From NCBI GenBank assembly GCA_028867435.1, contig JAGWGI010000001.1:19996-83995 (forward strand): a stretch of DNA of 64,000 nucleotides. Direction: 5' to 3'. Made by a program: the position numbers and the translations under genes. The notes below the pieces were generated by a model. It was given only the letters and a program-made list of their open reading frames with translations. It had not been told where the DNA came from and searched no databases. This DNA is from Candidatus Micrarchaeota archaeon (GTDB lineage Archaea; Micrarchaeota; Micrarchaeia; Micrarchaeales; CABMGC01). This document shows, one piece after another, positions 6,072 through 20,343 of this stretch; the stretch's first letter is position 1, and each line of letters starts with the position of its first letter.

Positions 6072-6707
6072 ATGCTCGCTGAACTCTCGGTTGCATTCTC
6101 TTCCCTGATCGCGCCGCTCACAGGCACATATGCGAGCATAAACACATTTGTGGGAGCCTATGGATATCTTGCGATCTTCATACTGATGGCACTTGAGTAC
6201 GCATCGCTTCCGATACCAAGCGAGATTGTGCTGCCACTGATAGGTCTGTTTGCAGCGCGCGGTACGCTTGGGTTCCTCCCTGCGCTGCTTGTAGTAGCAC
6301 TTGCCGGGCTTGTAGGTATGGGAATAGACTATTTCATAGCCTATTACCTGGGGAAGGATGTAGTGTACAAACACGCATCAATGTTCCACATAAAGAAGCA
6401 ACAACTAGACGATTTTGACGCCTGGTTCTCGCGCAACGGCAGCTTTGCTGTGTTCATAGCAAGGCTAATACCTGTGGCAAGAGGGCTTGTCAGCTTCCCC
6501 GCTGGGTTTGCAATGATGAATAAGCGCGCATTTTTTCTCTACTCTTTTGCAGGCGCCCTGATCTGGGATGTTGCGCTCATGCTCTTTGGTTACTATGGGC
6601 TCTCTTCAAGCAGCGTGTCTGTTACAATAAGCGCCATTGCAATCTTTGCAGTGGCGATATACATTATTTACAGGCTTGCCCTATCTGGCATAAGAAAAAG
6701 GAAGTAG
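6072..6707 (+). CDS. DedA/SNARE-associated family membrane protein
   Basis: YGYLAIFILMALEYASLPIPSEIVLPLIG, ARLIPVARGLVSFPAG, multiple TM helices. Confidence 0.8.
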   Translation: MLAELSVAFSSLIAPLTGTYASINTFVGAYGYLAIFILMALEYASLPIPSEIVLPLIGLFAARGTLGFLPALLVVALAGLVGMGIDYFIAYYLGKDVVYKHASMFHIKKQQLDDFDAWFSRNGSFAVFIARLIPVARGLVSFPAGFAMMNKRAFFLYSFAGALIWDVALMLFGYYGLSSSSVSVTISAIAIFAVAIYIIYRLALSGIRKRK

Positions 6708-6860
6708 AATGGTTTGCACAGACGCATGGCATAAGCACAACTCATCAGTTGCAGGGGCCGAATTTAGGCAGTAAGGAATGGGGCGCATATGCAATATTGC
6801 ACATTAAATATGTCGTAATATGCAAAATCATTAAATATTAGATAGTATAGTATATTTAAT

Positions 6861-8153
6861 ATGGCAGATTCTATAGCCCAAATATTAAGAAGGCAAATGA
6901 GCGAGTTTCAGCTTATCTACTCCTCAGACGGGATAATAAAGAGGGACAACCAGGCAACTCTCTCTAAAAACATAGATAACGCATTAGTAAAAGTGATTGT
7001 AGGGGTCAGAAGGAGCGGCAAGTCTACACTAGCCACTCTGCTGCTAGAAGGCAGGACTTTTGCCTACGCAAATTTTGATGAAAAGGGATTGACGGGCATC
7101 AACCTAGATGAACTGCTTTCTTTCCTAAAGGAAGTGTACGGTAATGCAAAGATAATATTTCTCGACGAAATCCAGAATGTGGACAGGTGGGAGCTGTGGG
7201 TTAACAGCATAAAGCGTCTTGGATACGATCTCATCATAACAGGATCAAACGCAAACATGCTAAGCAAAGAACTGGCAACGCACCTTACCGGCAGGTATGT
7301 GCAGTTTGAAGTGTTTCCATTCAGTTTCGCAGAATATCTACGCCTCAACAGGCTCGATGCGGCAAAGCTCAGGGACGAAGGCAGAGAGGGCGAACTAAAG
7401 AACGCACTGGAGCGTTATATGAAAAGTGGCGGATTTCCAGAGTTGGTGGCAAAGAATCTCGACCAGAGCTATCTTAAGACGATTGCTGGCGACATAATCT
7501 ACAAGGACATAGTGCTCAGATGGAATGTGCGGCACATGTCAGAACTTGACAGCGTGGCGAGCTATCTCGCATCGATATGCTCCTCAGAGTTTACAGCAAC
7601 TAAACTAGCGCATTCCCTAAATATGAAGAGTGCGATAACCGCTCAAAAGTACTGCAACTACCTGCACGAAGCTTATCTCTTTTTCTATCTTAAAAGGTTC
7701 TCTTTCAAGGCAAAAATCAGGGAGAAAGCTCCAAGGAAGGTATACTCAATCGATACAGGAATTATATCTGCCATAGGAACAAAGTTCGCCCCTGATTCTG
7801 GCAGGCTCATTGAGAATTTAGTGTTCCTTCAATTACGAAGAATGAACATGGTCGAGAATCAGAATCTCTTTTATTATAAGGACGTGGCAGGAAAAGAGGT
7901 TGACTTTGTAATAAAAGAGGGGCTGGCAGTTACCCAGTTAATACAGACTACATACGCATCGAGCAGAGAGGAGGTACAAAAAAGGGAGATTGCAGCACTC
8001 CTAAAGGCTGCCAAAGAGCTGAAATGCGATAAGCTTACAATCATAACCTGGGATTATTCAGCCACCGAGAAAATCGAAGGGCACACAATACAATTTGTAG
8101 CGTTGTGGGGATGGCTTATTCAAAACGATTTTGCCCAGAAACGTTTGGCATGA
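6861..8153 (+). CDS. AAA-type ATPase with C-terminal DUF4143-like domain
   Basis: Walker A VGVRRSGKSTL, Walker B IIFLDEIQNV, C-terminal GKEVDFVI module. Confidence 0.75.
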   Translation: MADSIAQILRRQMSEFQLIYSSDGIIKRDNQATLSKNIDNALVKVIVGVRRSGKSTLATLLLEGRTFAYANFDEKGLTGINLDELLSFLKEVYGNAKIIFLDEIQNVDRWELWVNSIKRLGYDLIITGSNANMLSKELATHLTGRYVQFEVFPFSFAEYLRLNRLDAAKLRDEGREGELKNALERYMKSGGFPELVAKNLDQSYLKTIAGDIIYKDIVLRWNVRHMSELDSVASYLASICSSEFTATKLAHSLNMKSAITAQKYCNYLHEAYLFFYLKRFSFKAKIREKAPRKVYSIDTGIISAIGTKFAPDSGRLIENLVFLQLRRMNMVENQNLFYYKDVAGKEVDFVIKEGLAVTQLIQTTYASSREEVQKREIAALLKAAKELKCDKLTIITWDYSATEKIEGHTIQFVALWGWLIQNDFAQKRLA

Positions 8154-8205
8154 GTGCCGCTCCTACCCAATTGCCGTTGAACTTCGGAGCTAGCTATCTA
8201 CGCCT

Positions 8206-9084
8206 TTAAGATATACCATCTTTGGATAAGAGTTTGCTGAATTTCTGCGTGACACTTTTTCTGAGGTTATATGTGTTTGCAAATCTTGCGTATGCCAGCC
8301 AGCCGTCCAGGCTTTTCGAGGCATCTTCATTAGTCATTAGGCCGTCCTGACACCTCTTTGTGAATACCTCTAGGCGCTTCCATATCCTCCTTGCATTGCT
8401 TTTCTTGAGCAGCTTGTAGTCTCGGAAAACCCTGAATCCTAGGAAGGTTATCCCTGCGTGCAGGGGGAGTATCTTTGTCTTTTCCTTGTGCAGCTCTATA
8501 TCGAGGCTTGAGCTGAGAAAATTATCTATGTCCGCCCGCCATTTCTCAAGACGGCCCTTATCGTTATCAAAGATCACAAAATCGTCTACGTATCTAATGT
8601 AATGCTTTGCCTTCAGGGTGTGCTTGACGAACTGATCAAGTTCGCCGAGGTATACGTTTGCGAAAAACTGGGAGGTGAGATTGCCTATTGGCATTCCCTT
8701 CCCTTCTATTTCAGATTTGTGATTCGCCAATATTATCCGTATAAGCTGCATGACCTGTGGATCTGCTATCTTATGGCCGACAATTTTTAACAAAATGCCA
8801 TGGTCTACGGTATCGAAATAATGGCGTATGTCGGCTTTCAGCGCAAATCCCGCGATGCGGCTTGCTTGCATGCGGGCGGTTTTTCTCATAAAAAACGCCG
8901 CTCTCCTTAGCGCTTTGTGGGTTCCTTTCCCATTCTGATTTGCAAAGGAATCATAGATAAATCCCTTCTCAAGAATCGGCGAGATTATGTTGCACAGGGC
9001 ATGATGCACAACCCCGTTCCTGTACTGTCGTCGCGCTGTCTTCTTCTCTTGTTCCTTGTAAGTGTGTCTTCGAGCTAGACGCAT
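8206..9084 (-). CDS. Reverse transcriptase, diversity-generating retroelement (DGR) type, possibly N-terminally truncated
   Basis: YVDD catalytic box (IRYVDDFVIF). The DGR-diagnostic motif 4 is PIGNLTSQFFANVYL, where group II introns have QGxxxSP. Also HHALCNIISPILE, NGKGTHKAL, ADIRHYFDTVDH and FLGFRV. The frame is closed by a TAA about 20 codons upstream of the ATG. Confidence 0.8.
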   Translation of the reverse strand: MRLARRHTYKEQEKKTARRQYRNGVVHHALCNIISPILEKGFIYDSFANQNGKGTHKALRRAAFFMRKTARMQASRIAGFALKADIRHYFDTVDHGILLKIVGHKIADPQVMQLIRIILANHKSEIEGKGMPIGNLTSQFFANVYLGELDQFVKHTLKAKHYIRYVDDFVIFDNDKGRLEKWRADIDNFLSSSLDIELHKEKTKILPLHAGITFLGFRVFRDYKLLKKSNARRIWKRLEVFTKRCQDGLMTNEDASKSLDGWLAYARFANTYNLRKSVTQKFSKLLSKDGIS

Positions 9085-9100
9085 CAGAAAAAGAAAATGA

Positions 9101-9421
9101 TCACTTCTTTGCAGGCTTTTCCTCCTTGTAGGTTATGGTGTGGTTCTTGACTATCTTTATTATCTGGTCAATTGCCCTTCGTATGTCGGCCTCAGTCTTT
9201 GCCCCAGTGCAGATGATCTTTCCGTTCTTGAAGAGAAGAAGCGCTGCCTTTGGCTCCTTTATCTTGCAGATTGCGCCTGGGAACTGCTCAGGCTCGTAGT
9301 CGATGTCGCTCGAGGCCTTTGCTATTCCGTAGAGATCTAGGTCTATTCCAAGGTCTGCGCTCGCTACTATGTTCTCGACCCTGAATTCCGGGCGCAATAT
9401 GGACTTGCCGTTCTTGGGCAT
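9101..9421 (-). CDS. Single-repeat TATA-binding-protein-like protein (half TBP)
   Basis: 106 aa. RVENIVASADLGIDLDL...DYEPEQFPGAICKIKEPKAALLLFKNGKIICTGAKTEADIRRAIDQII matches one TBP repeat end to end. No second repeat follows; the protein ends in a basic tail, KEEKPAKK. Confidence 0.7.
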   Translation of the reverse strand: MPKNGKSILRPEFRVENIVASADLGIDLDLYGIAKASSDIDYEPEQFPGAICKIKEPKAALLLFKNGKIICTGAKTEADIRRAIDQIIKIVKNHTITYKEEKPAKK

Positions 9422-9507
9422 TTAATCACTTGTATAGATACCATGAAAGCTATTTATATATATTGATGGCTAATTAGAGTGTCTAAAGTTTTTGATAACG
9501 TGAGCAT

Positions 9508-9795
9508 ATGGCACCAAGGTCACACGGTCTATTTATCGGCAGGACAAGGCACCTTGCAAGGCACCATAAGCCCTCAAAGCTGGGCCTTACCACCCTGATA
9601 AAGAACTTCAGCGTAGGCGACAAGGTTGCGATAGTGCCAAAAGGAAGCTTTCGGGACATACCACACCCAAGGTACAGGGGAAGGATAGGCGAAATAATAG
9701 AGAAGAGGGGAGATGCCTACGTGGTTGAGGTGTCTGTCTCAAAATCCACTATAAGAAAGATCATAGTCCCGCAAAGGCATCTGGAAAAACCATAA
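9508..9795 (+). CDS. rpl21e: Ribosomal protein L21e
   Basis: SHGLFIGRTRH...FSVGDKVAIVPKGSFRDIPHPRYRGRIGEIIEKRGDAYVVEV. Confidence 0.9.
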   Translation: MAPRSHGLFIGRTRHLARHHKPSKLGLTTLIKNFSVGDKVAIVPKGSFRDIPHPRYRGRIGEIIEKRGDAYVVEVSVSKSTIRKIIVPQRHLEKP

Positions 9796-9821
9796 TTTGC
9801 TTTGCGTTCGGCAGCTTGTTC

Positions 9822-10445
9822 TTAGGATGGTTTAATCCTCGTTTCTGCAGCTTGGTCAAATTTTTGCCTTGTTATTTGTATTATAGATTCCGTAAGCTGA
9901 TACTCTTTCTTCTTTACGCCTTTGTATATTGCCTGCAGGTCGGCATCGCTTGCCCAGTTATATTTAATATAGGCAATCTGCTTATTGAGCTCATGAATCC
10001 TATCCTTTGCTTCATTAATCTCTGACATGCCAACCAGGCTACCTTTATAGCTGTCGAACATGCAGCCCGAAATTACCGAGCCGCCGCCTACCGCGAAAAC
10101 GCCAACTAGTGTGGCCTCCTCATATCTATGGGTTATTGCCGCCATGATGCCAACTGCAGTCAAGGGAACAAGCATCGGAGTTAGAAGGGCAGGATATAGA
10201 ATCACGTCCGCAGCTGCGCCTGAGATCGTGGAGATTTTTTCCTTCTTTAACACCTTTATGCTCCCCGAAAGGTCCTTTTCTATTCCCCGCCTAATCTGCT
10301 TTAGCATGAATTTTGACAGGCTATACTCTAGGTGCTTGCCCGTAAGGATGCCGGATATTTTTGCCGCGTTATTCGGGGCATGAATTATACGATCGATGTG
10401 GGACTCTAGTATGCTCTTCTGCCTCTCTGTTTGGAGTTGTGGCAT
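9822..10445 (-). CDS. Hypothetical membrane protein (helical N-terminal region, central TM hairpin, C-terminal coiled coil)
   Basis: ORF only. Hydrophobic core ILYPALLTPMLVPLTAVGIMAAI...VGVFAVGGGSVISG. Same architecture as the neighbouring ORF 10532..11134. Confidence 0.45.
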   Translation of the reverse strand: MPQLQTERQKSILESHIDRIIHAPNNAAKISGILTGKHLEYSLSKFMLKQIRRGIEKDLSGSIKVLKKEKISTISGAAADVILYPALLTPMLVPLTAVGIMAAITHRYEEATLVGVFAVGGGSVISGCMFDSYKGSLVGMSEINEAKDRIHELNKQIAYIKYNWASDADLQAIYKGVKKKEYQLTESIIQITRQKFDQAAETRIKPS

Positions 10446-10531
10446 ATAACCACAGATACTATGATTTTCCGCCTTTAAATACGTGATTCATGACTTCGTT
10501 TCAGCGGGAAATTTTACGAGAATTAGTGGCT

Positions 10532-11134
10532 TTATTCCCTTTCCAGCTTTCTCCTTGCGGCGTTGATTATCCGGTCGAGGATCTCCTTGTCCTTTTGAAT
10601 TATTCCGTTTATCACCGCTTGCGATTCGATGTCTTTTTGCCAGCGTTGCTCAACTTGGCTTATTTTTGCCTTTACTCCTTTGAGAGAAACGGTGAGCTCG
10701 GTTATTATTCCGTACTGGCTTACTGGGCGGGTTTTTGCCATTGTAATCAGAAATACGGTCCCGCTGGCGGCTATGCCAGCGACGTCATAGATCAGAAGCC
10801 CGTGAACCTGCAGGTTTGATAGGGCTTCAACCAGAAGCGCCAAGGGGCCTAATGATAGCAATCCGAAAGGCAGCGAGAGCTTTGCTATCGCGATTGACTT
10901 TGTCTCTGAGAGCTTCTTCTCTTCCCTCTTGATTTCTTTGAGCTCCCTGAGAAGGTCGTTTTTTATGTGCTTGACTATGTGGTTGCCCAGACGCTTTTGC
11001 ACAGCATTGTAGCTTTTTCTGCCGCCTTTTGATAACAGCGCCTCTATCTCGGAGGCGTGCTCAGGCATTGATAGTATTTCCTCTACTTTGATCCTTATTA
11101 TCCCTCCTATCTTCTCCTTGCTTGCATGCCTCAT
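10532..11134 (-). CDS. Hypothetical membrane protein, architectural paralog of 9822..10445
   Basis: ORF only. Hydrophobic core LSLPFGLLSLGPLALLVEAL...IYDVAGIAASGTVFLI, flanked by charged helical segments. Confidence 0.45.
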   Translation of the reverse strand: MRHASKEKIGGIIRIKVEEILSMPEHASEIEALLSKGGRKSYNAVQKRLGNHIVKHIKNDLLRELKEIKREEKKLSETKSIAIAKLSLPFGLLSLGPLALLVEALSNLQVHGLLIYDVAGIAASGTVFLITMAKTRPVSQYGIITELTVSLKGVKAKISQVEQRWQKDIESQAVINGIIQKDKEILDRIINAARRKLERE

Positions 11135-13755: not shown

Positions 13756-15396
13756 TTAGGAAACGCTGACATGCACGTAATCTACTGCGCTGTTCCCGAA
13801 GCCGTCAACCGCATCTATTGAGATCGTGTAGTTTCCTGGCTGCGAGTATGCGTGGGTGCAAGACAACTCGCACTGCTGCAGATTTGAAGTTGTAGGGGCG
13901 TTGGGATCGCCCCATGCGATTGTGGTTTGCTGCGCATTAATCTGCGCCTTCTGGCCGAATGTATTGACTGCATTTGCCCAGATGTTGCCGCTCAGGCTAA
14001 CTGTGGAGTTGCTCATGCTGGCAGTGACTGCTATAGAGGGCTTGGCAAAGTATCCGGTTAGATTGGAAGTGGATGATGAACCATTTACCAGAGTGGTGGG
14101 GTAGAGTGATTGCTGATTCGTGTTCCCGAAGCTGTCTACAGCATGCACGGTTATTGTGTAGGTTCCGGCTTTGGAATAGGCATGGCTGCACTGGGTCTCG
14201 CACTGCGCCATTGTCGAGTTTGTGAGGTTGTTTGGGTCGCCCCAGTAAATGGTGGTCTGCTGGGTGTCGATGCTGGCCAAGGCGCCGCTTGAATCCACTG
14301 CATTGGCCCAGATATTCCCGTTTATGGAGACTGTGTCGCCTGAAACGCTTGCGTTAACATCTATCGATGGCTTTGCACCGTTTTGTGAGAGGACGGAGTT
14401 GGAACCTACAGTAACCTGGATCTGCTTTAAGCTGCTATCGCCGAAACTGTCTAGTGCGGAGATGGTTATGGTGTAGTTTCCTGTCTGTGCGTAGGAATGG
14501 GAGCAGTACGAATCGCATTGGGCAAGGGTGGAATCTGTGGAATTTTGCGGATCTCCCCAGGAGATTGTGGTCGCCTGATTGTTCATTGTTGCCTTGACCC
14601 CCTGCGAATTTACCGCACTGGCATAGATGCTGCCGTTTAGGGCCACAAGATTTGCGGCAACCTGATAGCTGAGATGTATTGTAGGAGGGGCAGAACTGCT
14701 AGAGAAGTTGCTCACCAAGACATGCAGTGACTTTGCACTGCTATAGTTTAGGCTATCAATTGCAAATATCTCTATCTGGTAGTTGCCTGCTTGGGAGTAC
14801 ACGTGAGCGCAGTACGAATAGCATTGGGAGAGGGTGGTGTTGGTGCTGTTGCTTTGGTCTCCCCATGAGATATGACTCGCCTTCGCATTCATTGTGGCGG
14901 GCACGCCGTTGGGGCCAATAGATCTTGCGAAGATGTTTCCATCTATGCTTACAAAGGTTCCAGAAACATTTGTGCTCACCTGTATAGCTGGAGGCGTGGA
15001 ACTACCCGATGAGGTGTTCTGGGATAGAATGGAGATGTTTATGTACTCGTGATTGATGTTGCCGAGGCTATCTACCGCGTCTATGAATATTGTGTAGTTG
15101 CCCGGCTGGGGATAAGTGTGCCCGCAGTAGGCCTCGCACTGCTCAAGCGTGGTGACTGTTACATTGTTAGGGTCGCCCCAGGAGATGGTGGTGTCCTGCA
15201 AATTCATCGATGCTGCCGCACCTGTGGCATTTACTGCGGTTGCATAGATGTTCCCACTAAGGCTCACCGTGTCAGCTGAAAGGCTTGTGCTGACAGTTAT
15301 TGCTGGTGGGGAGTTGCTCGCTGCGAAAGCTGCTGGAACTAGAAGCAAGAACGAAAGTAAAAATGCCAGCCTTTTGATGTTCGATGCATTCATCAA
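13756..15396 (-). CDS. Secreted protein with 5 PKD-like repeats
   Basis: Signal peptide MMNASNIKRLAFLLSFLLLVPAAFA. Five modules of the form ...T(I/H)(S/Y/A)WGD(P/Q)xN...QC(E/D/Y)x(Y/Q/S)C(G/A/S/T)H(T/V/S/A)Y(P/S/A)(Q/K)(P/A/T)G(N/T)Y(T/Q)I...D(S/G)(L/F)(G/N). Confidence 0.75.
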   Translation of the reverse strand: MMNASNIKRLAFLLSFLLLVPAAFAASNSPPAITVSTSLSADTVSLSGNIYATAVNATGAAASMNLQDTTISWGDPNNVTVTTLEQCEAYCGHTYPQPGNYTIFIDAVDSLGNINHEYINISILSQNTSSGSSTPPAIQVSTNVSGTFVSIDGNIFARSIGPNGVPATMNAKASHISWGDQSNSTNTTLSQCYSYCAHVYSQAGNYQIEIFAIDSLNYSSAKSLHVLVSNFSSSSAPPTIHLSYQVAANLVALNGSIYASAVNSQGVKATMNNQATTISWGDPQNSTDSTLAQCDSYCSHSYAQTGNYTITISALDSFGDSSLKQIQVTVGSNSVLSQNGAKPSIDVNASVSGDTVSINGNIWANAVDSSGALASIDTQQTTIYWGDPNNLTNSTMAQCETQCSHAYSKAGTYTITVHAVDSFGNTNQQSLYPTTLVNGSSSTSNLTGYFAKPSIAVTASMSNSTVSLSGNIWANAVNTFGQKAQINAQQTTIAWGDPNAPTTSNLQQCELSCTHAYSQPGNYTISIDAVDGFGNSAVDYVHVSVS

Positions 15397-15429
15397 CCAA
15401 ACCTAAATCAACCAAACTTAAATCCAACT

Positions 15430-18400
15430 TTAACCGGGAACACTTACTTGCAGGTACTGCTGGTTCGTGTTTCCAAGGTTGTCCACTGCTTCCACGGTAA
15501 TAGTGTAGTTGCCAGCCTGAGAGTAGGTGTGGCTGCACGATCCTGATTCGCATACTGCAAGAGTCATGGCAGTTAGGTTATTTGGATCTCCCCAGTATAT
15601 CTTGGTTCCCTGGGTGTTCATGACCGCACTCGCCCCGCCCTGACTTACTGCAGTTGCATAAATGTTCCCGCCCAGAGAAACAGTATATCCTGACGTGGCT
15701 GCACTAACCTGTACCACAGGAGCCGCGTTAGGGTTTCCGGAAACTGTAGTCGTAGAAGTGGTGTTTGCTTGGGAGGAAGAAGAGGCGGTAATGTATACGT
15801 TAATGTACTTCTGTGCCGTGTTTCCAAAGTTGTCAACCGCCTCCACTGTTATAGTATACGACCCAGGCTGGGAGTAGTAGTGTCCGCAGTATGAGTAGCA
15901 CTGGGTCAAGGTGGTGGCGGTTAGGTTGTTCTCATCGCCCCAGTAGACCTTTGTGTTCTGGCTGTTGATTGAAGCAGACGTTCCGTTGTATCCGACTGCA
16001 TTTGCCCAGATGTTGCCGCCCAATTGCGCCATCTGACCAGAGGTGCTGGTCACACTCACCTGTATCGAGGGCTGGGCGTTAGGATTTGCATTGGCAAAGG
16101 TGGTGTTTGAGGAGGATCCAGAGGAGGTGGATACGTTTGGCACTCGCACAGATAGGAACTGCTGTTGCGTGTTGTTGAAGCTGTCTATTGCTTCTATGGT
16201 TATGGTGTAGGCACCTGATTGCGAATAATAGTGGCTGCAGTATGTGGCGCACTGGGCCATTGTTGTGGTTGATAGGTTGTTTGGGTCGCCCCAGTAGATC
16301 TTGGTGCCCTGTGTGTTCATCACTGCGTCAGTTCCGGATTGCGTTGAAGCCGAGGCATAGATGTTGCCGCTAAGGCTCACGAGATATCCTATCGTGCTTG
16401 TAGAAATGACTATTATCGGCTTGGAAGTCGCATTGTAGTAAGTGCTATTGGCAGATGCGCATGGAAGAAACGGGTTGCCGCATCCCGGCACGGATCCAGA
16501 GTTGCCAGAAGTGCTAGATGAGGCTGAAGAGGATACAGTAACAGTAAGCTCATTCTGAGCGGTGTTGCGAAGGCTGTCTATCGCCTCTATTGTTATGATG
16601 TAGGTGCCTGATTGCAAGTAGGTGTGTCCGCAGTATGTAGCGCACTGGGCCATTGTTGTTGTGCTCAGGTTGTTTGGGTCATCCCAGTATATCCTCGTGC
16701 CTTGGGTGTTCATCACTGCATTCTGGCCGTTGGTACCTACGGCATTGGAGTAGATGCTGCCATTTAGAGTCACGGTGGCTCCAGATACATTTGCGGCAAC
16801 GGAAATTGTCGGTGGAAGCGTTGGGTTTGGAATCGAGCCCTGGCTTCCTGAGGTGGTGCTGCCAGAACTATTAGAGGGGATCGTAATTGGTATTGGCTTT
16901 TGGGCGGTGTTGCCTAGATTGTCTAATGCCACAATGGTTATGATATAGTTGCCTGGCTGCGAGTACTGGTGTCCGCAGTATGTGGCGCACTGGGCCATTG
17001 TTGTTGTGCTCAGGTTGCTTGGATCGCCCCATGAAACCTTGGTCTCCTGTGTGTTCATAACCGCTGGTGTTCCGCTGCTGCTTACCGCCTTTGCATAGAT
17101 ACTGCCGTTGAGCTGCACCACGTTTCCAGTGAATGCCGCGGTTACCTCTATTACAGGAGGAGCAGTAGGGCTGGTCTGGGATGAAGAAGATGCGGTGCTT
17201 CCGCTAGAAGAGCTTGATGGTACCGTTGCCTGAAGCGATGCGTAGTTCTTGTTGCCGAAGCTGTCTACTGCAACTATCCCTATAGTATATGTTCCCTTTG
17301 AGGAATATGTGTGGTTGCAGGAACCTGCTTCACACTCTTGTAGTGTGGTAGTTGTGAGGTTGTTGTGGTCTCCCCAGGAGATTATGGTGTTCTGTGTGTC
17401 CATTGTGGCCTTGCCGCTTATTTTCTGTGCGTTGGCGTAGATGTTGCCATTTAGGGATACGGTATAGCCTGTTGTGCTTGTAGTAACCGAGATTGTGGGA
17501 ACTGAAGAGGGGCCGGTGGTAGCACTGGTGCCTGAACTTGAGTTTGTGCTTGAGGAGCCACCAGAAGTGCTGCCAGAGTTTGATGGAACCATGACATGGT
17601 AGATGTACTGGTTAGAGTCGCCCGCATTGTCAGTTGCAGTGACAGTGAGGTTATATATGCCAGCAGACTGCGGGTAGGTGTGAGTGAAGTGCGCAGGACA
17701 GCTATAGCTAGATGTGCTGGGCAGCGTGGCATTCACCCCATATCCTGATTGGACCTGCATGGTATAGGTATCGTATCCTGCAATTTTCTGATCTCCCCAT
17801 GACCACTGTATCAGTTGGAGCTGCGCGCCGACTGCGTTTGTGTAGATGCTGCAGGTAAATGCTGCTGTGTATCCGCTTATGCTTGCCCCCACATTCATTG
17901 TGACTCTTGAGCTGTTTGGATTCGTTGGGCCATTTGGTACTGTAGTTGAATAAGAGCCGACCTGCGCTGTCATCGATGCCACGTTTGTGTTTCCTGCGGT
18001 ATCTATGGCGGCTATGGAGATTGTGAAGTTGCCGGGAAGTGGATAGGTGTGGCTGCATGCACTGCGCTCGCACTGGTAGAAGGTCTCAGGAGTGCTGTTG
18101 GACGTGTCGCCCCAGTAGATGAACGTGTGGTTAGCTGCTATTGCGGCCTTCTGCCCCTTCTGAGGTCCGTACTGCAGCAGTGCATTGGTGTAGATCTCAC
18201 CATTGAGCGTGACTGTCTGGCCGCTTATGGCAGGAGTAACCTGAATGATCGGGTTTGTTGAGGATGGCGCTGTTGTCGATCCTGTCGATGTACAAGAACC
18301 TGAAGCGCCCTGAGGCACTGTTATTGGCAGAGTAACGCTGTTCCTGTTGCCTTTGTTGTCCACCCCAATTACCCTGACATTAAATGTACCCTGGCTGCTG

Positions 18401-19477: not shown

Positions 19478-19867
19478 ATGAGGCTGCTTGTTATGCTCGT
19501 CTTCCTTGTGGGAATGACGACTACGGTACTTGCAGCCATAGGCTCAGGTAGCAACGGCGGCGGCGGAAACCCATCTACAGCTACAGGAGCTCAGGTAGGC
19601 ACTCTGACCTCACAGCTATGCGGGATAGTCAATGGCGTCAGGACCATTATAGGAGTTCTCGCTCTGGTCATGTTCCTTGTTGGGGGAGTCCTCTACTCTG
19701 CCGCGCACTTCATGCCTGCTGCCGGTCAGATAAAGGCAAACATGCAGGGATGGTCCATGGGAATGATACTCGGAGCTGTTGTCGGAGTGATACTGGTAAT
19801 ACTTGCACCGATAATCGTGAACCACCTGATTTCATTCGACTCTAGCATCACTACTGTGGCCTGCTAG
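19478..19867 (+). CDS. VirB2/TrbC/CedA1-like two-helix pilin candidate (copy A)
   Basis: Signal peptide MRLLVMLVFLVGMTTTVLAA. Helix 1 is LCGIVNGVRTIIGVLALVMFLVGGVLY, the loop is SAAHFMPAAGQIKANMQG, and helix 2 is WSMGMILGAVVGVILVILAPIIV. The last residue is Cys. The track start at 19448 is a TTG; ATGs lie at 19460 and 19478. Confidence 0.55.
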   Translation: MRLLVMLVFLVGMTTTVLAAIGSGSNGGGGNPSTATGAQVGTLTSQLCGIVNGVRTIIGVLALVMFLVGGVLYSAAHFMPAAGQIKANMQGWSMGMILGAVVGVILVILAPIIVNHLISFDSSITTVAC

Positions 19868-19929
19868 ATTTTTGCCACTTTGGCAAGGTTTTATCTATCT
19901 TCTAATCCCAAGATATTTGGGTATTTTTG

Positions 19930-20343
19930 ATGACTGCCCTGAACTTCAGGCTATTTTGCACCATTGCAATAATCGTGCTTGCGGTAGGTGTTTTCGCCGC
20001 TGCTCCGGCGCCTGTAATAGGGCCTGGACTTAATACGACAAGCAGCACTGGAGGGGCTACTACAAATGGGATCTCAACGCTCACCTCCCAGCTATGCGGC
20101 ATAGTTGCAGGAGTGAGGACCGTCATAGGGGTTGTGGCCCTTGTAATGTTCCTTATAGGTGGAATACTTTATTCCATAGCGCACTTCATGCCTGCTGCCG
20201 GTCAGATAAGATCGAATATGCAGGGATGGTCCATGGGAATGATCTTCGGGGCGGTTGTCGGAGTGGTTCTGGTTCTGCTCGCTCCGATAATAATAAACCA
20301 CCTGCTCGCATTCGGAAACGGGATCTCGATTCCACAGTGCTAG
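19930..20343 (+). CDS. VirB2/TrbC/CedA1-like two-helix pilin candidate (copy B)
   Basis: Paralog of copy A: LTSQLCGIVAGVRTVIGVVALVMFLIGGILYSIAHFMPAAGQIRSNMQGWSMGMIFGAVVGVVLVLLAPIIINHL. Also ends in Cys. Confidence 0.55.
   Translation: MTALNFRLFCTIAIIVLAVGVFAAAPAPVIGPGLNTTSSTGGATTNGISTLTSQLCGIVAGVRTVIGVVALVMFLIGGILYSIAHFMPAAGQIRSNMQGWSMGMIFGAVVGVVLVLLAPIIINHLLAFGNGISIPQC

Follow-up and report, generated by a model that had tools for sequence, protein, structure and literature searches.

A probable 5'-truncated remnant of a DGR reverse transcriptase in a Candidatus Micrarchaeota genome

A 292-aa reverse transcriptase (RT) ORF was analysed in a 64-kb stretch of DNA (64,000 nt, hereafter the window) from a Candidatus Micrarchaeota genome, and it is very probably the 5'-truncated, non-functional remnant of a DGR RT. 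This reading is supported by the placement of the ORF in the DGR clade, the loss of its N-terminal extension (NTE) and of motif 1, the missing partners of a DGR, and the position of the fragment in a strain-specific insertion. The fragment is an ordinary dead retroelement remnant and not a new system. Such remnants are to be expected, since a GenBank survey discarded more than half of its candidate DGRs for stops, truncations or poor matches between template repeat (TR) and variable repeat (VR) (Wu et al. 2018, PMC5758913).

The truncated RT and its clade

The motifs listed in the first-pass annotation, which was made from the sequence alone, were all found in the 292-aa ORF: YVDD, PIGNLTSQFFANVYL, HHALCN (residues 27-32), GKGTH and DIRHYFDTVDH. 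The flanks were likewise as given there, namely 52 nt (8154..8205) and 16 nt (9085..9100), and the frame was indeed closed upstream of the ATG, at a distance of 17 codons instead of about 20. The proposed DGR type was borne out by the PIGNLTSQ form of motif 4, by the best solved match (8ub7_A) and by relatives that carry TR/VR pairs. The window ORF matched 8ub7_A, a 328-aa 'Reverse transcriptase', with an E-value of 1.9e-39 over residues 70-317 of the latter, including IGSLTSQLFANVY and YMDD, and matched group II intron/retron-type RTs with E-values of 1e-15 or weaker. We take 8ub7_A to be the bRT of the Bordetella phage, recognised by its sequence (…PIGSLTSQLFANVY…YMDD…). The closest relative of the window RT, P0002 (371 aa, full-length, 82% aa identity, encoded on the 1,974-bp contig L002), gave the same picture (E 1.2e-50 for 8ub7_A vs 6e-21 for group II RTs). 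Judged by sequence, the window RT is a member of the DGR clade.

Other RT classes were matched far less well. The best NCBIfam model was TIGR04416 (group II intron RT), with 126 bits against a cutoff of 300 and a match from model position 77 onwards; no group II Rfam families were found, and the ORF did not qualify as part of a group II intron. Models of defence RTs also stayed below their cutoffs (Drt3a, 72 bits, cutoff 200; retron St85, 58 bits, cutoff 235), the top PADLOC match was a generic RT model, no msr/msd or other ncRNA was found by the Rfam search, and the ORF did not qualify as a defence RT (DRT/UG, Abi or retron).

By comparison with L002 and the neighbouring genes, the ORF and its surroundings were divided into the following parts:

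8206..9084, minus strand: RT ORF of 292 aa, a composite of an accidental N-terminus, a scrambled motif 1 and a genuine DGR RT
RT ORF residues 1-7 (MRLARRH): antisense of the remnant of a VTT gene tail
RT ORF residues ~9-19: scrambled motif 1
RT ORF residues 20-292: genuine DGR RT, comprising the rest of the fingers, the palm with YVDD, and the thumb
8199..9027, minus strand: ungapped RT homology block, 88% DNA identity to L002:876-1704
9028..9058, minus strand: degraded leftover of the motif-1 codons (RDPKTRKIS to KEQEKKTA), three indels relative to L002:842-875
8170..8197, minus strand: 28-nt fragment of RT-16 (RF03019), 25/28 identical to L002:399-426, downstream of the RT

The N-terminus had been described as apparently short, and this was confirmed: xHALCN begins at residue 27, against a median of residue 86 in 120 homologues, which are mostly 340-370 aa long, and the single RVT_1 domain found in the ORF by Pfam starts at profile position 23. 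Relative to L002, ~67 codons (the NTE) have been deleted and the next ~11 codons scrambled by indels. The suspicion that motif 1 was degenerate also proved correct, with the three indels listed above and with FRDR, which is present in 100% of 114 relatives, replaced by YRNG. Among the 107 alignment columns conserved in at least 90% of these 114 relatives, the ORF deviates at 25, and 24 of the 25 lie within residues 1-24. The ORF is therefore not a complete RT comprising the NTE and motifs 1-7. By comparison with bRT, the deleted portion is recognisable as the NTE subdomain, a defined part of bRT in contact with further portions of the bRT-Avd-RNA complex (bioRxiv 10.1101/2023.10.23.563531), and the scrambled motif 1 takes in the equivalent of bRT R74, whose predicted contact is the incoming dNTP (PMC7826257).

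At the DNA level, the homology block runs 7 nt beyond the RT stop codon (8208..8206), which is TAA in the window and CAA in L002. At its other end, the 30-40 nt upstream of 9027 are collinear with the motif-1 codons of L002 and beat shuffled sequences (4/2000), with three indels, a homology that has statistical support only if the alignment is anchored to the adjacent block. Beyond ~9058 there was no match to L002 DNA, and in no relative did DNA homology start upstream of 9037.

Five of the RT homologues (P0052, P0058, P0074, P0084 and P0096) start just before motif 1 (…RDPKTRKIS…), without the NTE. One of them, P0084, is 491 aa long, occurs on 6 contigs and carries a C-terminal PF14493 domain. 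These short homologues may represent mis-called starts or a real short-NTE subgroup.

Intact relatives and the partners missing from the window

Relatives of the same lineage were collected as 80 loci among the matches listed, all from DPANN genomes. Their RTs share 45-64% aa identity with the window RT and come from Micrarchaeota, Woesearchaeota, Nanoarchaeota and Aenigmatarchaeota. Self-comparison by blastn revealed TR/VR pairs in 50/80 of these loci, with 80-100% of the mismatches at TR adenines; the locus of Nanoarchaeota SCGC AAA011-G17 (L075) was among them. The unit is arranged on one strand in the order small target gene with VR, RT-16 RNA, TR and RT. In most of the TR/VR-bearing relatives the TR immediately precedes the RT start, with the VR 300-600 nt further upstream in a small ORF, and wherever a pair was detected the distance between TR and RT gene stays within ~1.5 kb.

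The Rfam family RT-16 (RF03019, gathering score 50) was found upstream of the RT in 10/10 relatives scanned, with 52-83 bits, and where the TR was detected (L005, L012, L014, L021, L075) it ends at the first TR bases. The positions of the RNA and its neighbours in the relatives are as follows:

L021:9466-9675, L014:9494-9664 and L075:1460-1648, plus six further loci: RT-16, located by Rfam
L012:9450-9648: RT-16, followed by the TR at 9651-9751
L002:311-502: RT-16, 64.5 bits
L002:~504-605: TR, ~80% alignment to the verified TRs of L012 and L021
L002, from position 642: RT gene

In this archaeal lineage RT-16 probably forms the structured 5' portion of the DGR RNA. In the Bordetella DGR a structured RNA lies 3' of the TR, whereas RT-16 in the archaeal lineage sits 5' of it. 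Weinberg et al. described the motifs RT-1 to RT-19 near RT genes, assigned only RT-10 to DGRs and speculated on the others (PMC5737381). An Avd-like gene was absent from the relatives' loci with listed gene calls, the contexts of L166 and L169 among them, and Avd may not be a defining feature of the archaeal DGR lineage. The closest full-length RTs on long contigs sit among mobile or defence-type genes (L166:3491-4489 and 9376-10662; L169:3350-3945), including an IS110 transposase, an AAA_14/DUF4143 ATPase and PIN toxin pairs, contexts that fit DGR cassettes residing in variable islands.

In the window, the partners found in these relatives were missing. No recognisable TR/VR pair had been seen by eye in the first pass, and neither a blastn self-scan nor an exhaustive diagonal scan of the 64 kb revealed one. 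In the former, run at word size 7, no more than 62% of the mismatches of any repeat pair fell on a single base, and the same blastn method served as its own positive control by finding the pairs in the 50/80 relatives' loci. The latter covered all diagonals on both strands, direct and inverted, with mismatches at A or T ignored, and yielded a single local match (19748 vs 20224), which was rejected as TR/VR because it lies in a 238-nt paralogue pair with mismatches over all four bases. Long diverged internal repeats of 57-79% identity occur at 13759..17499, within giant PKD-domain surface proteins, and at 19601..20314, the paralogue pair behind this only local adenine-biased spot.

Searches directed at the individual components agreed with these scans. 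The whole L002 contig was compared with the window by blastn and tblastx, and neither its TR nor the beginning of its RT gene had a match there. When 12 target proteins of the relatives were searched against the window by tblastn, the best E-value was 0.13. RT-16 was found nowhere in the window at the gathering threshold, nor around the 28-nt fragment at E-values up to 10. In agreement with the first-pass annotation, in which no Avd-like gene had been seen, the RT has none next to it and is flanked by genes for a TBP-domain protein and an AAA_14/DUF4143 ATPase. Within the 64-kb window, then, the RT clade of a functional DGR was found, and its complete RT, TR/VR pair, target and structured RNA were not. 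In metagenomes, an exact-pattern scan for closer relatives was empty, and a protein-guided scan found none above 59% identity.

The window RT might be thought to work in trans on a set of TR, VR and target elsewhere in the genome, a location that the first-pass annotation had also considered: remote targets are known for some DGRs (PMC5758913), the search covered 64 kb of the genome, and the RT has kept its palm and thumb. This is nevertheless very unlikely, as all relatives in which a pair was detected have the TR close to the RT. Moreover, the window copy lacks the subdomain that in bRT contacts other parts of the complex of protein and RNA, and its motif 1 is scrambled at the equivalent of R74. 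It could hardly use a TR/VR pair located elsewhere.

The insertion and the state of the surviving part

The surroundings of the RT fragment were compared with six related Micrarchaeota contigs (L083-L085, L171-L173), in which the gene order is rpl21e, a single-repeat TBP gene, a convergent VTT-domain gene and pelota, and in which the TBP stop abuts the VTT stop. In the window, homology to this backbone stops at ~9107 and restarts at ~6672, and a strain-specific insertion of ~2.36 kb (~6708..9064) lies between the TBP and VTT genes. The region consists of:

6072..6707, plus strand: gene of a membrane protein with a VTT domain, belonging to the syntenic backbone
6672..6707, plus strand: present VTT 3' end (RLALSGIRKRK and stop), second copy of the duplicated tail
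6708..6860, no strand: AT-rich spacer of 153 nt that precedes the ATPase gene and forms the left end of the insertion
6861..8153, plus strand: AAA_14/DUF4143 ATPase gene, a match to PDC-S01, a candidate defence family of PADLOC; convergent with the RT and in the same insertion
9065..9100, plus strand: remnant of the old VTT 3' end (CLRARRIRKRK and stop), abutting the TBP stop as in the relatives
9101..9421, minus strand: intact single-repeat TBP gene, part of the syntenic backbone, outside the element

The old VTT-tail remnant occupies the 36 nt directly after the TBP stop, where L171 has HLARRELRKRR and stop. Its 16-nt core is shared with the present tail at 14/16 positions (6688..6703 vs 9081..9096). 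Since copies of the tail flank the gap in backbone homology, the target of the insertion is the last ~12 codons of VTT. The ATG of the RT ORF (9084..9082) lies within the old tail remnant on the opposite strand, so the first seven residues of the ORF are accidental. A direct repeat flanking the RT fragment was also considered, but the 12-nt match (CTAGCTCGAAG) shared by the two RT junctions was not significant (66/500 shuffles) and lies within the VTT remnant.

The DNA comes from a genome assembled out of a metagenome, and the homology breaks off abruptly, as would be expected if the contig were chimeric at the 5' end of the RT and the real gene full-length. Such an assembly or gene-calling artefact is extremely unlikely, because the identical RT protein occurs with the same neighbours on three contigs of 49-138 kb, and because the same syntenic backbone is found on both sides, so that a chimera would need two joins returning to one locus. 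The duplicated VTT tail is, in addition, the signature of a biological insertion. The identical protein has been deposited as 'RNA-directed DNA polymerase [Candidatus Micrarchaeota archaeon]'.

A truncation of the TBP gene in the course of the insertion was considered and rejected, since a conserved Micrarchaeota family consists of single-repeat TBPs of 93-130 aa with the same tail. A duplication of the TBP tail (HTITYKEEK vs HTYKEQEK at the N-terminus of the RT ORF) was likewise rejected as not significant (57/500 shuffles). The protein itself is monopartite (106 aa); ~70 of its best 120 matches are 93-130 aa long with 72-97% identity and are mostly labelled Micrarchaeota. It shares 58% identity with one repeat and 51% with the other of a 182-aa Micrarchaeia TBP. 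Its gene adjoins rpl21e in L083-L085 and L171, and no second TBP was found in the 64-kb window. Monopartite TBPs have been described for Halobacteria and Thermococcales in a paper that does not mention Micrarchaeum/ARMAN (PMC3597702). Further along, at 9822..11134 on the minus strand, two adjacent ORFs of 207 and 200 aa have no significant family match (a weak DUF6118 match was below cutoff). At the counterpart position there are no genes of such size in L083 and L085 and a single 199-aa gene in L171, and the site looks like a second variable spot beside rpl21e.

The part of the RT that survives shows no decay. Residues 20-292 (273 codons) contain no stop and no frameshift, and their dN/dS relative to L002 is 0.24 at a dS of 0.34. 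Within residues 25-292 there is one deviation from a conserved position, shared with P0002, and the derived changes at conserved sites number 0 in the window lineage and 2 in L002. More damage would be expected in a pseudogene that had been dead for long, which leaves a recent break or continued selection on the fragment. On this sequence evidence the truncation is probably recent in evolution, and recency is favoured over selection because nothing else supports a retained function. The first-pass description of a decaying DGR remnant thus holds for the remnant; the RT is truncated instead of decaying, and residues 25-292 give no sign of relaxed constraint.

A truncated RT of palm and thumb might instead be kept by selection for a non-polymerase role, such as nucleic-acid binding or defence, either alone or with the PDC-S01-type ATPase; recruitment to another role was the third reading offered in the first-pass annotation. 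The intact ORF, its low dN/dS, the absence of lost conserved residues in residues 25-292 and the restriction of indels to the 31 nt beside the break all fit this idea, as do the ATPase neighbour, which matches the candidate defence family with an E-value of 2e-106, and the database homologues that likewise start just before motif 1. The same pattern is, however, predicted by a recent truncation. The RT and ATPase genes are convergent and their pairing is not conserved among the relatives; as a conserved DGR partner the ATPase was rejected, since AAA_14 proteins lie within 10 kb of the RT in few of the relatives' loci, at 22-36% identity and in varying positions. The sole close relative, L002, is full-length with RT-16 and TR, the N-terminus of the window ORF is built of antisense VTT remnant and scrambled codons, and no conserved protein family with a similar truncation came to light. 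A retained role is therefore quite unlikely, and a recently truncated, non-functional remnant remains the preferred reading.

Some observations do count against that reading. The indels are distributed as 3 in the 31 nt beside the break and 0 in the next 829 nt, a heterogeneity without explanation. The position of the 28-nt RT-16 scrap is a further difficulty. This scrap starts right after the end of the RT homology (8199), its score was reached by 0/500 shuffles, and its counterpart L002:399-426 is the central, conserved junction of RT-16. It is not a dispersed repeat, being single-copy in the window and found, among the other loci, only in L002. It sits downstream of the RT on the same strand, while the RT-16 of intact relatives lies upstream of TR and RT. 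A simple deletion does not explain this order of RT followed by RT-16, which requires at least one more rearrangement, for example a tandem copy or a circular intermediate. An unlikely alternative that addresses these points is that the fragment is not junk, but either a 'half RT' of palm plus thumb under selection or the trace of an integrated circular or retro-copied DGR intermediate. Selection on a half RT would explain why 273 perfect codons lie beside 31 indel-riddled nucleotides. If the second were true, the permuted order of RT 3' end and RT-16, together with the duplicated tail, would bear witness to the mobility of DGR cassettes in DPANN archaea.

Origin, significance and comparison with known systems

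The history of the remnant may be pictured as follows. In the intact ancestor, by analogy with Bordetella, the RT would have copied the RT-16/TR RNA to cDNA, misreading adenines, and the cDNA would then have overwritten the VR. At the present locus the NTE, an intact motif 1, RT-16, TR, VR and target have been lost, leaving the last ~273 RT codons. The fragment would have arrived with the ~2.36-kb insertion into the last ~12 codons of VTT, or have been rearranged within that insertion, which would also have brought the PDC-S01-type ATPase gene and the 28-nt scrap. A chance ATG in the antisense VTT leftover restores an open frame, and the locus very probably has no capacity to diversify anything.

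In itself the RT fragment matters little, as inactivated DGRs are common, and it adds a well-resolved example from Micrarchaeota. It illustrates that an RT annotation with DGR motifs is not equivalent to a working DGR, since even the start codon is here an accident of insertion, and that small, strain-specific insertions carry DGR pieces along with candidate defence genes. Two by-products of the analysis may be more useful than the fragment: the position of RT-16 within archaeal DGRs, and the conservation of the neighbouring TBP with its single repeat. In particular, the location of RT-16 immediately 5' of the TR places this orphan RNA family in a concrete context and offers a handle in searches for archaeal DGRs.

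Among the known systems, the DGR of Bordetella phage BPP-1 (bRT, Avd, TR and the VR of mtd) contains the best solved relative of the window RT. The window ORF differs from it in having no counterpart of bRT residues 1-69 (the NTE), and the locus differs in having no adjacent Avd and no TR or VR in the 64-kb window. Group II intron RT/maturases are the next-best family by profile, but the similarity is far weaker than to bRT, and motif 4, which is of the SQ type in the window ORF, sets the two apart. Defence RTs (DRT/UG, Abi, retrons) give weak RT-domain matches to the ORF, with scores far below those of the generic RT model and of the DGR relatives. The fragment does adjoin a candidate defence ATPase.

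The DGRs of DPANN archaea (Paul et al. 2015, PMC4372165; Paul et al. 2017, cited in PMC5758913) belong to the same RT lineage as the window RT and share its IGNLTSQ and YVDD motifs. They consist of a target with VR, RT-16, TR and a full-length RT, whereas what remains in the window is an RT without its 5' quarter and a 28-nt piece of RT-16. The closest parallel is offered by the inactivated or partial DGRs of the GenBank survey (Wu et al. 2018, PMC5758913), which likewise have a truncated RT without matching TR/VR. Compared with these, the window copy has a defined breakpoint, an insertion context and a surviving part free of decay, and it does not differ from them in kind.
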